A stretch of 64,000 nt of DNA, taken from assembly GCA_041690355.1 (NCBI GenBank), contig JAWLHK010000021.1, positions 1-64,000 of the forward strand. The letters are read 5' to 3'. A program made the position numbers and the translations under genes. Each line of letters begins with the position of its first letter. The stretch's first letter is position 1. This DNA is from a bacterium. GTDB taxonomy: Bacteria; J088; JAWLBW01. Below are positions 1,630-61,830 of the stretch, piece after piece. The notes beneath the pieces were generated by a model that was not told the origin of the DNA, did no database searches, and saw nothing but the letters and a program-made list of their open reading frames with translations.

Positions 1630-3561
1630 ATGCTCCAACTCGTCCATCTCGGCAAGCACTTCCAGGGGCGTTACCTCTTCCAGGATCTGAACTGGCAGCT
1701 GCGCGACGGCGATCGCGTCGGCCTGTGCGGCAGCAACGGGTCGGGCAAGACCACCCTGCTGCGCGTACTCGCCGGCGAGGTCGAGCCCGATGAGGGCAAC
1801 CTGGCCCTCCCCCGCGGCACGACCATCGGTTACCTGCCTCAGGACGGCCTGCAGGCGGCGGGACGCACCCTCTTCGACGAGGCGCGCCAGGCGTTCGGCC
1901 CGCTGCTCGCCCTGCAGGCCGAACAGACCGAGATCGAACGGCGGCTCGACGACGGCACGGCCGACGACGGCGAAGCCACGGCGCTCGCGGCGCGCTACGA
2001 CGAGATTCTCCAGGCCTTTCGCGACCGCGGGGGCTTCGACATGGACCGTCGCGTCACGCAGGTTCTGCTCGGCCTCGGCTTCACCCGGGCTGAGTTCGAA
2101 AAGGACTGCCGGCACTTCAGCGGCGGCTGGCAGATGCGCATCGCCCTCGCCCGCCTGCTGCTCTCGCAGCCCGACATCCTGCTGCTCGACGAGCCCACCA
2201 ACCACCTCGATCTCGAGGCTCGCGAGTGGCTGCGCGACTTTCTCGTCGCCTACCCGTACAGCGTCGTCCTCGTCAGCCACGACCGCGCCTTTCTCGACGC
2301 CGTCGTGACCCGCATTGCCGAGATCTCGCCCCTGGGCCTGCTCGACTTCGTGGGCGGCTACACGCGCTTTCTGGAGCAGCGCGACGAGTACGTGGCGGCC
2401 ATCGAGAACCGCAACCGGCGCCTCGAAGAAGAGATCGCCCGCCTGCAGACCAACGTCGAGCGGTTCGGCGCGAAGGCGACCAAAGCGGCCCAGGCCCAGG
2501 CATGGGCCAAGCAGATCGAAAAACTGCAGGCGGAACTTCGGCCGCTCCCCCCGCCGCGCAGCACCATCCACTTCCGCTTTCCCCCCGCCGAACGCAGCGG
2601 GCGCATCGTGCTCTCGCTCGAACGGGTCACGAAGCGCTACGGCGACCTGACGGTGCTCGAAGACGTCGACCTGAACCTCGAACGGGGCGCGCGCGTCGCC
2701 CTCGTGGGGGTGAACGGCGCCGGCAAGAGTACGCTCATGCGCATTCTGGCCGGCCGCGAGCAGTGCGAGGGAGCGGTGCGCATCGGGCACAACGTGCAGG
2801 CGCGCTTCTTCGCCCAGGATCAGGCGCAGGAGCTCGACTATTCGCGCACCGTGCTCGAAGAGGCCCAGAGCGCATCCCCCGTCGCCGACATCCCCCGCGT
2901 GCGCGGCCTGCTGGGGGCGTTTCTCTTCTCCGGCGACGACGTGCACAAACCGGTGCGCGTGCTCTCGGGCGGCGAGCGCAACCGGCTGGCGCTCCTGAAG
3001 CTGCTGCTGCAGCCGGCGAACCTGCTCCTGCTCGACGAGCCGACGAACCACCTCGACATCGACAGCAAGGACGTGCTGCTCGAGGCCCTGCAGAACTTCG
3101 AGGGAACGATCGTGTTCGTGAGCCACGACCGCTACTTTCTCGAGCAGCTGGCCACGCAGGTCGTCGAGGTCGGCGGCGGCCACGCCGCGCTCTATCCGGG
3201 AACGTTTGCGGAACTGCAGTGGAAGAAGAGCCGCGACGCCGCGGGCACCCTCGTCAACGGCGAGCGTCCCACCGAAGCGGTCGTCGTGGGTACCTCCGTG
3301 AGCAAGGCCGAGCGCATCGCCGAGCGCGAAGCGCAGAAAGCGGCGGCGGCGGCCGACCGCAAGCGGCAGAAGCTGATCGAGGGAATCGAAGCGGCGATTG
3401 CCGAGGGCGAAGCCGAGGTGAGCCGGTTTGAAGCGCGCCTTGCCGATCCGGAGGTCTATGCCGACCCAGAGCGCGCGGCCGAAGCGGCCCGCGATCTCTC
3501 CGAGGCCAAGGCGCGGGTGGCGGCCCTGCTCGACGAGTGGGAAGCGGCGCACGGGAATTGA
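1630..3561 (+). CDS. ABC-F family ATP-binding cassette protein (two tandem ABC domains, Uup/EttA/YheS-like)
   Basis: Two Walker A sites (GSNGSGKTTLL and GVNGAGKSTLM), two LSGG signatures and a coiled-coil C-terminus. The in-frame ATG at 1630 (MLQLVHLGKHF) replaces the extended ORF-track start at 1027. Confidence 0.85.
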   Translation: MLQLVHLGKHFQGRYLFQDLNWQLRDGDRVGLCGSNGSGKTTLLRVLAGEVEPDEGNLALPRGTTIGYLPQDGLQAAGRTLFDEARQAFGPLLALQAEQTEIERRLDDGTADDGEATALAARYDEILQAFRDRGGFDMDRRVTQVLLGLGFTRAEFEKDCRHFSGGWQMRIALARLLLSQPDILLLDEPTNHLDLEAREWLRDFLVAYPYSVVLVSHDRAFLDAVVTRIAEISPLGLLDFVGGYTRFLEQRDEYVAAIENRNRRLEEEIARLQTNVERFGAKATKAAQAQAWAKQIEKLQAELRPLPPPRSTIHFRFPPAERSGRIVLSLERVTKRYGDLTVLEDVDLNLERGARVALVGVNGAGKSTLMRILAGREQCEGAVRIGHNVQARFFAQDQAQELDYSRTVLEEAQSASPVADIPRVRGLLGAFLFSGDDVHKPVRVLSGGERNRLALLKLLLQPANLLLLDEPTNHLDIDSKDVLLEALQNFEGTIVFVSHDRYFLEQLATQVVEVGGGHAALYPGTFAELQWKKSRDAAGTLVNGERPTEAVVVGTSVSKAERIAEREAQKAAAAADRKRQKLIEGIEAAIAEGEAEVSRFEARLADPEVYADPERAAEAARDLSEAKARVAALLDEWEAAHGN

Positions 3562-3980
3562 CGATTTACGATTGACGATTGACGAGTTACAGACACGACG
3601 ACTCCGTGCCACTCGTCACTCGGACAAGCGCCGAGCGCCAAGCACTGAGCGCTGAGCAAACAAGAGACCGTGATGGCCGAGGCTCACCTGTGAAGTGCCC
3701 CCATCGGGGGAACCCTTGCTGCAAACGCATCCATGATGGCGGGGGAAAATTCCGTCACTCGTCACTGGACAAGCGCCGAGCGCCAGGCACTGAGCGCTGA
3801 GAAAACGAGCCAACAAGAACGTGGCGTTCCTTGCCCTTGCCGGAAAACTCGTCACTCGTCACGGGATTTGACGATTGACGATTTACGATTTTCAGGCACG
3901 ACGGTCACTCGACCAACGGTCCGGTCACTTGCCGGCAAATCGCAAATCGCAAATCGTAAATCGTAAATTGTAAATTGTAA
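3561..3980. repeat. Composite intergenic repeat element. Heptamer arrays (GACGATT x4 at the left; AAATCGC/AAATCGT/AAATTGT x7 at the right, in inverted orientation) flank two copies of a ~65-bp unit: ACTCGTCACTSG-GACAAGCGCCGAGCGCCARGCACTGAGCGCTGAG.AAAC.AG
   Basis: Read directly at 3565-3600, 3600-3665, 3755-3830 and 3856-3975. It sits between two convergent gene ends. Confidence 0.85.
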
Positions 3981-3981
3981 A

Positions 3982-60864: not shown

Positions 60865-61774
60865 CGGTGCTCCTTCTCTTGGAAAGCCCCGTGAGTCACA
60901 CACGTGCGAGATGGAGCACCTTCGGCACGATCCGTGAAAGCCCCATGGACCGCCGACACGGGGGACCGACGAACCTCCGATATCTTATAGGAGGCGCCAT
61001 TGTACTGCAACTTGTTATGGTGGCCCTTTTTGGAGATCGCGATGTGCCGGTTGGCCAGGGAGTATCTACTGGCCTGTGCCAGGATGCGGGGGCAGGCAAG
61101 CCTAACGGTTTGCCAACCAGGGGCGCGCCTTTCTGCACATCATATCAAGTGCGCGCCCGCTATGCGCGTCCCCCTGCGTTGGCGTGTTAGCAGCTGGGGA
61201 GCCTGACCTACTTAGGACCGCACAAAAACTTGTTAAGGTCATGGACGTAGATGATGGAACTGTATACCTAAAAAATGCCGAAGATTGCGAATCCAACACT
61301 GAGCAAGATATTCTCGATTCGATTGTATTTCGCTCGGAATGCGGAGCTAAGGCTTGTTGCAATAAGTATTGCCACGTGCCATAGCTAAAGCCGACGGAAA
61401 CGCGACCAACGTCACTACATCCACGTATTCCAAAACGACAAAAGGCTTTTTCCGAGCTATTGTGACAAGCACAAAAGCAGAATAGAGAGAGCCAAAAACG
61501 CAACGTAAAGTCGTTTTATCCACATAGGCGTTGAAGGTGCAACGTTTTAGGTATGAGGGCAGCCTTTCAAAGGTTCGGGACAACGCTGTCGGCGGCTAAC
61601 ATCTACTGAACGGCTCGTCGCCGTCTTACATCCCGGCTTCGCGCCTGCCCAACGAGCGACAGCAAGTGTCCAGGAGGCCGGATTTGCTGGGCCCGGGGCA
61701 CAAGCGCGCGGGGCGTTAGGCGGCGCCAATGCTGAACACTATACCGAGCGGGCCGCCTGGCGCGCAATTGGAAG

Positions 61775-61830
61775 CGGGGGCGCGCCAAGCGCCGAGCGCC
61801 AAGCGCTGAGCGCCAACGAAACAAGAGCCA
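61775..61830. repeat. Copy of the GCGCCRA/GCGCTGA heptamer-array element with an AAACAAGAG tail
   Basis: gcgccaagcgccgagcgccaagcgctgagcgccaacgaaacaagagcca. Confidence 0.8.

Follow-up and report, generated by a model that had tools for sequence, protein, structure and literature searches.

Short arrays of tandem 7-nt units are dispersed through the intergenic spacers of a 64-kb stretch of bacterial DNA (positions 1 to 64,000 of contig JAWLHK010000021.1, assembly GCA_041690355.1; hereafter referred to as the window). The window has a GC content of 66% and carries ordinary chromosomal genes, for which Pfam scans identify an ABC-F ATPase, a response regulator with a PilZ domain (RR-PilZ), a SerB-like phosphatase, GroES/GroEL, MetRS, many two-component proteins, FolE (GTP cyclohydrolase I), Gmk, YicC, an S15 peptidase, YaeQ, and giant Kelch-, NHL- and Ig-repeat proteins. 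No tRNAs were found in the window, and Rfam covariance models applied to its whole length gave no matches at gathering thresholds. GroEL is 79-81% identical to sequences from Sandaracinaceae, Polyangia, and Myxococcales and at most 88% identical to any database sequence, the top relative of the ABC-F protein reaches no more than 61% identity, and an ABC-F search of a species-representative genome collection returned only unrelated genomes (24-36% identity). These values point to an unsampled, Polyangia-like lineage of Myxococcota as the source of the DNA.

Heptanucleotide arrays and composite modules in the window

Nineteen period-7 arrays, spread over eight intergenic sites, were detected in the 64-kb window by Tandem Repeats Finder (TRF) and direct reading, namely at 3557-3984 (eight arrays, which together fill their spacer), 23226-23343 (three), 27554-27584, 31437-31516, 41725-41777, 43615-43694 (two), 44281-44303, and 61779-61818; the period-7 arrays reported by TRF have 2.3-10.6 copies and 75-100% matches. 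The original prediction, made from the letters alone, had described such arrays at "ten or more" sites, and while every array it had placed on the map is present with the units it described, the sites number eight and a CCGACGT array at 31559-31585 had been overlooked. The unit families in the window are GACGAKT, AGCGCYR, TGATTCC, AGAGTCY, GACTNNN, and CCGACGT. The reverse complement of ACTCGTC, GACGAGT, differs from GACGATT at a single base (the pair is 94% complementary); therefore, GACGATT and ACTCGTC, whose sequences had been listed correctly but as distinct units, are one family in two orientations. Six AGCGCYR arrays and approximately nine arrays of the GACGAKT family recur within the 64 kb, and members of both are joined in a composite module of ~60 nt, which consists of two ACTCGTC units, a linker of 5-6 nt, four AGCGCYR units, and a non-periodic tail, AAC(G)AAACAAGAG. 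The individual features are listed below with their strands.

3557-3590 (+): ATTGACG/GATTKAC array of ~4.5 units, the final unit being GACGAGT
3607-3664 (+): composite module, copy 1, with two ACTCGTC units, four AGCGCYR units and the tail AAACAAGAG
3753-3809 (+): second copy of the composite module, with 93% identity to the first across 43 nt
3847-3893 (+): two ACTCGTC units abutting three TTGACGA units, an inverted pair with an 11-bp hairpin (z=-2.7)
3933-3984 (-): AAATCGY/AAATTGT array of 6.7 units, GATTTRC on the RR-PilZ sense strand
23226-23290 (+): composite module, copy 3, with TCGTCACTCGTCAC, four AGCGCYR units and the tail AACGAGGCAAGGGC
23309-23343 (+): AATCGTC array, with period 14 at 100% match
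27554-27584 (+): four TGATTCC units in the convergent spacer between an epimerase gene and gmk
31437-31516 (+): 10.6 units of AGAGTCT/AGAGTCC, self-complementary via a TCTAGA core
31559-31585 (+): 3.6 units of CCGACGT, 6 nt from the stop of a minus-strand DegT-family gene
41725-41777 (-): GACTNNN array with period 14 or 21
43615-43649 (-): array of the AGCGYCC type (inverted member of the AGCGCYR family), placed centrally in the divergent spacer 43518-43741
43668-43694 (+): 3.6 units of ACTCGTY in the same divergent spacer, ~48 nt before the YaeQ start codon
44281-44340 (+): 3.3 units of AGCGCYR with a degenerate inverted copy downstream, in a 69-bp convergent spacer
61779-61830 (+): five AGCGCYR units followed by the tail AACGAAACAAGAGC, with period 14 at 95% match

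To quantify the periodicity, regions with a self-match of at least 18 of 21 were counted for each period, with 30 dinucleotide-preserving shuffles as control. Seven such strict regions were obtained at period 7, seven at period 14, and one at period 21; one was obtained at period 16, two at period 18, and none at the remaining periods from 2 to 20. The shuffles yielded 0.0-0.07 strict regions, and 0.0 at period 7. Period 7 with its multiples 14 and 21 is almost the only enriched period; the periodicity is thus a specific one and greatly exceeds chance.

The core pattern of the composite module, CACTCGTCAC-N5-6-AAGCGCCRAGCGCC, occurs three times with 0 expected, the copies of the module are 75-93% identical, and the non-periodic tail that follows AGCGCYR arrays is common to four sites. 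The recurrence of the module and of its tail suggests that pieces were copied between loci and not only made in place, in agreement with the earlier claim that modules have been recombined.

The position of the arrays relative to genes was assessed on a map curated by hand from GC content at third codon positions (GC3), Pfam matches, and a database-confirmed peptidase start. Of 13 arrays called with a looser threshold, 12 lie between genes, even though coding DNA makes up ~90% of the window; arrays cover 570 of ~6,315 intergenic bases (9%), whereas coding DNA is nearly array-free (one weak 3-unit array lies inside a gene), which corresponds to a ~110-fold higher density in intergenic than in coding DNA. 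When spacers of at least 20 bp are considered, arrays occupy four of five convergent, one of nine divergent, and two of 15 co-directional spacers, and the difference between convergent and all other spacers (4/5 versus 3/24) is significant (Fisher p=0.007). A pooled survey gave 17 of 42 convergent, 21 of 109 co-directional, and two of 28 divergent spacers occupied, with ~24 of 85 array-to-stop distances within -9 to +10 nt. The preference for convergent and 3' positions proposed earlier thus holds, with an exception at 43615-43694, where two arrays lie between divergent genes; they are central in the spacer and clear of both start codons.

At six gene ends in the window, the stop codon lies inside an array or no more than 5 nt from one. 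The TGA stop of ABC-F (3559-3561) is inside the first unit of array 3557-3590, and the RR-PilZ stop codon (3982-3984) is the last partial unit of array 3933-3984. The final two codons of FolE and its TAG stop (at 31446) fall within the first AGAGTCT unit, and the final four codons of the S15 peptidase and its TAG stop (41763-41765) are inside array 41725-41777. The TGATTCC array begins 5 nt beyond the stop of the epimerase gene, and the AGCGCYR array at YaeQ begins 1 nt beyond the stop. RR-PilZ is conserved through its last residue in three genomes; therefore, the array begins exactly at the end of the protein without intruding into it. Positions further from gene ends also occur: the third copy of the composite module begins 36 nt past a response-regulator gene stop, the AATCGTC array at 23309-23343 is followed just downstream by a promoter-like TTGCCC-17-CATAAT (23353-23381), and the AGCGCYR array at 61779-61818 is antisense to both neighbors, in a 1.3-kb spacer between two minus-strand genes.

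Several other features of these spacers and genes were observed. The 1.3-kb spacer (60904-62207) contains no convincing gene, a 133-aa open reading frame (ORF) at 61102-61503 having no Pfam match. It separates two of three adjacent giant repeat-protein genes on the minus strand (46665-54152, 55216-60903, and 62208-63842), which encode a 2,495-aa protein with CarboxypepD_reg, Big_13 and BNR domains, a 1,895-aa Kelch-repeat protein, and an NHL-repeat protein, respectively; GC3 in this stretch is below that of the rest of the window, and the DNA of the Kelch-repeat gene shows a tandem periodicity of 141-153 bp. In the spacer upstream of the 3' end of the 2,495-aa gene, a perfect 16-bp tandem duplication (46555-46588; 2.1 copies of CCCTTCCCTGCGACGC) is the sole strong intergenic repeat of the window with a period other than 7. 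The spacer with the TGATTCC array also contains 3.6 copies of a 12-nt repeat, TCTTCGGACTCG (27608-27665), adjoined by a GC-rich hairpin, GGGTCCCCCTTCGGGGGAC, which lacks a T-run and lies ~25 nt from the gmk stop. Region 40527-41762 has 71% GC, and its sole long ORF (40633-41745, plus strand, 370 aa, TTG start) has no Pfam match and a GC3 under that of its neighbors; whether this ORF is a gene decides whether array 41725-41777 sits in a convergent spacer. The S15 peptidase gene starts at ATG 43517 (minus strand, 43515-43517) and encodes a lipoprotein-type signal peptide (LSTAC); a TTGACA lies at 43546-43551, ~30 nt upstream of this start, and the leader may be very short or absent.

Arrays in relatives, in other taxa and in known repeat classes

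Two syntenic loci were recovered, L001 (GCA_041687475.1) and L002 (ENA ERZ27266020), which share the order histidine kinase/ABC-F/RR-PilZ/SerB with the window at 59-61% ABC-F identity. In both, period-7 arrays occupy the spacer between ABC-F and RR-PilZ and reach the RR-PilZ stop, and further arrays are found at the stop of RNase PH, which in L002 lies within the last unit. The units are wholly unlike those of the window (GATCTGS and CCATCGA in L001; CTAGCCK, CCAGCCG, and GTAGTCT in L002). Three loci with S15 peptidase orthologues (L138, L139, and L140, ~21 kb each) have tight spacers and no arrays, L139 having been recovered from the sample that also yielded L002; positional conservation is therefore confined to two spacers. 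No arrays were detected at a locus with 87% GroEL identity or at three Sandaracinus-type loci. Taken together, the presence of arrays in L001 and L002 and their absence from the other loci imply that the propensity to carry them is lineage-wide but variable, and that the genome of the window is especially array-rich.

Arrays of this kind are also present in unrelated taxa. Among 11 unrelated loci, one carries long period-7 arrays, belonging to the planctomycete Ca. Laterigemmans baculatus, with six GGGAGCC and 18 CACCKGA units side by side (L007, 7407-7620). In a metagenome collection, (AGCGCYR)3AGCGC was found in at least 120 contigs of 39-77% GC, and among the AGCGCYR contigs listed, period 7 is still the commonest when the ascertained unit is excluded; several contigs (L040, L063/L068, L073, L122, L043, and L055) carry four to eight arrays of different units. 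These contigs and the planctomycete locus show that period-7 arrays are common in unrelated genomes; commonness in unrelated high-GC genomes was an outcome that the original prediction had itself named as refuting it. The composite-module pattern itself had no match in 241 million metagenome records, and a literature search for heptamer repeats in myxobacteria found no report. The pair L063/L068 represents two strains of one metagenomic species (99.25% identity) with 31 SNPs in 7.2 kb, between which none of five arrays has changed its unit number; hypervariability of the arrays is thus rejected.

Some metagenomic contigs show additional arrangements. Units of 60-100 bp of the form array-loop-inverted array, for instance (CAGAGGT)n-AGCGCT-(GACCTCT)n, occur at L040 32-134 and 4804-4872, L063 1211-1293, and L068 7837-7919, and would fold as near-perfect long hairpins; L040 has eight heptamer arrays within 11.5 kb. 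L079 (66-212) contains four copies of a 36-nt higher-order repeat made of AGCGCCG/CGCGCCG heptamers and a linker (CCCCTGGCC), which may be coding; 17 pooled array sites lie inside GC3-supported ORFs.

Several known repeat systems resemble these arrays in part. The cyanobacterial short tandemly repeated repetitive (STRR) sequences are the classic multi-family heptamers and are defined by cyanobacterial unit sequences. Repetitive extragenic palindromic (REP) units are imperfect palindromes of ~35 bp mobilised by REP-associated tyrosine transposases (RAYTs). With STRR the window shares several heptamer families per genome in dispersed tandem arrays in non-coding DNA, but it differs in phylum, in the low-GC context of STRR, and in the units, the STRR unit sequences being absent here; heptanucleotides of Calothrix are an STRR example cited in PMC4692102. 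Heptanucleotides are described as the most abundant long simple sequence repeats (LSSRs) in prokaryotes, dominant among repeats of 5-11 nt, found in large high-GC genomes of non-pathogens and mostly non-coding, and polymerase slippage was the origin proposed for them (Mrazek et al. 2007, by Mrazek, Guo & Shah, as represented in PMC4679880 and PMC4692102). The arrays of the window agree with LSSRs in their head-to-tail 7-nt tandem units, which are above chance and mostly non-coding (eight sites in 64 kb); they differ in that neither a Myxococcota taxon nor this unit set is among the examples found, and in that families are joined into recurring composite modules and inverted pairs.

Rehm et al. 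(2015, PMC4692102) described GGGAATC repeats in Xanthomonas and GGGGA(C/T)T repeats in Nostoc, which number in the hundreds as intergenic arrays with 2-26 units, mostly within 50 bp of a stop codon or overlapping it and under-represented between divergent ORFs, with no link to gene function; the same genes flank them in relatives while length and sequence vary, and the units have G-tracts and form G-quadruplexes, arrays of four units being preferred. The arrays of the window are likewise near or over stop codons and rare between divergent genes, but none of their units has a GGG run and there are many families instead of one. TAACTGA arrays of 2-6 units occur at more than 100 loci in marine Beggiatoaceae and in some Cyanobacteria and Bacteroidetes, mostly a few nucleotides ahead of start codons; the functions of the neighboring genes follow no pattern, and RNA-binding regulators were proposed for the arrays (MacGregor 2015, PMC4679880). 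These are short intergenic heptamer arrays as well; however, the arrays of the window are 3'-biased and have many units, and no TAACTGA array is present. A TGACTGA stretch at 41740-41777 is one base from TAACTGA, but forms a single array at a 3' end. Bacterial interspersed mosaic elements (BIMEs) and REP sequences are also mosaic, intergenic, and found at gene 3' ends or between convergent genes, and some copies in the window fold in the 3' untranslated region (UTR); however, the units here are direct 7-mers and most arrays do not fold. The view of the original prediction that the family is none of REP, BIME, or HIP1 is retained, but its view that the family is undescribed is correct only in part: intergenic heptanucleotide simple sequence repeats (SSRs) already constitute a described class. 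Unit sequences and taxon aside, the arrays of the window agree with the published members of this class throughout, in period, intergenic bias, overlap with stop codons, scarcity in divergent spacers, and absence of a tie to gene function.

Possible origin and function of the arrays

We are highly confident in assigning the arrays to the heptanucleotide LSSR/STRR-like class. They are a real feature, found in a new lineage with new units and a modular arrangement, and they are not a new kind of element. Slippage, one of the origins suggested earlier, was judged the likeliest, and we are inclined, with some reserve, to accept the whole account that includes a mostly neutral, slippage-driven origin. 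Replication slippage or unequal exchange, keeping to a 7-nt register, would lengthen and renew the arrays in steps of single units and also of 14-, 21-, or 22-nt blocks, and small composite blocks would be copied between loci by a short-patch process such as recombination or template switching, the latter of which would also account for the frequent inverted pairs. Because a 7-nt unit shifts the reading frame, arrays would be purged from genes, and because they would disturb promoters they would persist mainly in 3' and convergent spacers, where loss of other non-essential DNA would leave them abutting stop codons and they would be transcribed into 3' UTRs. A minority, comprising inverted pairs and self-complementary units, would form very stable stem-loops that could act as REP-like 3'-end protectors or U-less terminators; such stem-loops would be a side effect at some sites and not a defining property.

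Three kinds of internal structure bear on this account. At 3937-3983, variant units lie beside their twins (two each of AAATCGC, AAATCGT, and AAATTGT); exact higher-order blocks of 14, 21, or 22 nt are present, with a 22-nt unit at 100% match in L002, and blocks with a 14-nt period occur at 23309 and 61782; and in 113 of the 116 arrays pooled from all loci, neighboring units resemble each other more than they do after the unit order is shuffled, a statistic that is partly circular because arrays are detected by adjacent-unit similarity. Twin variants, higher-order blocks, and likeness of adjacent units are the usual signature of slippage or unequal exchange. Apart from this circularity, several points weigh against slippage and neutrality as a sufficient explanation. 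Independent slippage leaves the recurrence of a few units at many loci unaccounted for and gives no reason for a period of exactly 7 in place of 5 or 8; either selection on the unit sequence or some means of copying would have to be invoked in addition. The five arrays that remained unchanged across 31 SNPs imply that slippage is not fast. Moreover, same-unit inverted pairs make up 16 of 52 neighboring array pairs over all loci, far above chance, which may reflect hairpin selection instead of neutrality.

Alternatively, the arrays could be functional 3'-end elements, the lineage's equivalent of REP/BIME or of U-less ("I-shaped") terminators; inverted or self-complementary arrays, once folded in the transcript, would halt RNA polymerase or make it pause where convergent genes meet, and would shield mRNA 3' ends from exonucleases. 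The occupation of four of five convergent spacers and the many contigs with same-unit inverted pairs are consistent with this possibility, as is the distribution of canonical terminators: groEL, which has no array, is followed by a textbook intrinsic terminator (10018-10047, plus strand; 13-bp GC-rich stem, 4-nt loop, and T-run), the only convincing one in 64 kb. (The groEL of a relative, L014, also has an intrinsic terminator at 11727-11760.) Directly after stops, stable folds are found at three of the eight sites, which fold better than shuffles: the RR-PilZ 3' UTR (3860-3990, minus strand; -43.3 kcal/mol, z=-4.0), in which array 3933-3984 pairs with 3868-3891; the AGAGTCT array with its neighbor (31441-31590, plus strand; z=-5.5); and the YaeQ spacer, which is spanned by a hairpin of the AGCGCYR array and its inverted copy (44276-44355, plus strand; -40.3 kcal/mol, z=-3.2). 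However, the other five sites of the window, two convergent ones among them, fold no better than shuffles (z>-1), and folding of the arrays at the orthologous gene ends of L001 and L002 is not significant (z -0.3 to -1.8), so that a conserved 3' hairpin is rejected. No array in the window has a canonical terminator of hairpin and U-tract, U-tracts being absent from the array sites. Maximal self-complementarity is not enriched either, being found in five of 37 non-ascertained unit families versus 11.9% expected (p=0.46), and units with palindromic cores (AGCGCT, TCTAGA, and GACGTC) as a rule, or hairpin-assisted slippage based on them, are likewise rejected. A Rho utilization (rut) region also fails as an explanation, since downstream of stop codons the excess of C over G in 80 nt varies between -9 and +9 at array-bearing gene ends, with no difference from array-free ends. 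Moreover, a divergent spacer also holds arrays, and another array precedes a promoter. The suggestion of the original prediction that the arrays act as terminators or insulators accordingly finds no consistent support, and a role as 3'-end elements in general is possible but rather unlikely. The related idea that arrays place stops in all three frames does not stand: only four of 19 arrays close all frames on the plus strand and one of 19 on the minus strand, which is not above chance given that 26% of random heptamer arrays of the same composition do so per strand, and of the six arrays touching a stop codon, only two block every frame when read in the direction of the gene concerned.

A recognition role is conceivable too, as HutP reads UAG-N4, a short motif every 7 nt. 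The arrays could be binding sites for a factor that differs between species (a nucleoid- or gyrase-type protein or a ring-shaped RNA-binding protein) and with which the units co-evolve; few families recur within a genome while each relative has others, the period is kept while sequence turns over, three units of 21 bp would equal two helical turns, and RNA-binding regulators have been proposed by MacGregor for TAACTGA repeats (PMC4679880). However, at least six unrelated families in 64 kb would call for several factors or loose specificity, array orientation relative to the flanking gene is inconsistent between sites, no candidate protein was identified, and AGCGCYR contigs of 39-77% GC could not share one factor by descent, which makes this reading very unlikely. 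We consider it quite improbable that the arrays are small non-autonomous mobile elements, similar to REP or to transposable elements of the miniature inverted-repeat type (MITEs), that insert at gene ends and whose arms happen to be periodic. The discrete ~60-nt module with three copies, the 428-bp spacer 3556-3984 bounded by 40-nt inverted arrays, and the palindromic array-loop-array units of 60-85 bp in several contigs would fit such elements; however, there are no target-site duplications and no full-length, near-identical copies, most arrays are solitary with site-specific copy number and variant order, and the module is absent from the 241 million metagenome records. No RAYT or other transposase gene was found among the Pfam-scanned ORFs of the window, a scan that was not exhaustive. 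MITEs in the strict sense are rejected on the lack of target-site duplications and because only the ~60-nt module recurs, three times at 75-93% identity. A CRISPR array, with its 24-48-bp repeats and unique spacers, is rejected as well, because the units here are 7 nt long and contiguous. SSRs are classic phase-variation switches, and one site in a divergent promoter region and one upstream of a promoter might suggest contingency loci in which unit number switches expression of a neighboring gene. However, most arrays follow genes of a housekeeping type (ABC-F, folE, yaeQ, and the epimerase gene) and do not precede surface-protein genes, unit number is the same in the two strains compared, and the published heptamer classes have no such association (PMC4692102); phase variation is hence scarcely credible.

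Setting aside these alternatives, the preferred account of slippage with short-patch copying leaves room for a bolder possibility, which we regard as decidedly unlikely, that heptamer arrays are actively produced and functionally used gene-end elements in many phyla, in which a period of 7 nt and a location at the stop codon matter and the sequence does not, a genome-specific machine writing or reading the units. The writer could be a polymerase that adds templated repeats or switches templates where breaks occur or forks stall between convergent genes, and the reader could be a multimeric protein with a motif bound at each 7-nt step. If true, this would explain the recurrence of units, their full turnover between relatives whose spacers are still occupied, the arrays that start exactly at stops, and the frequent same-unit inverted pairs. 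The finding alone does not alter existing knowledge. Nevertheless, the window is a clean and dense case from a new phylum-level setting (Myxococcota), and it offers several handles, namely recurring multi-family modules, arrays at the stops of proteins with conserved ends, and relatives with other units in the same spacers. Multi-family heptamer arrays are widespread in environmental bacteria, and a comparative search for the polymerase, repair factor, or binding factor responsible for them is therefore feasible.

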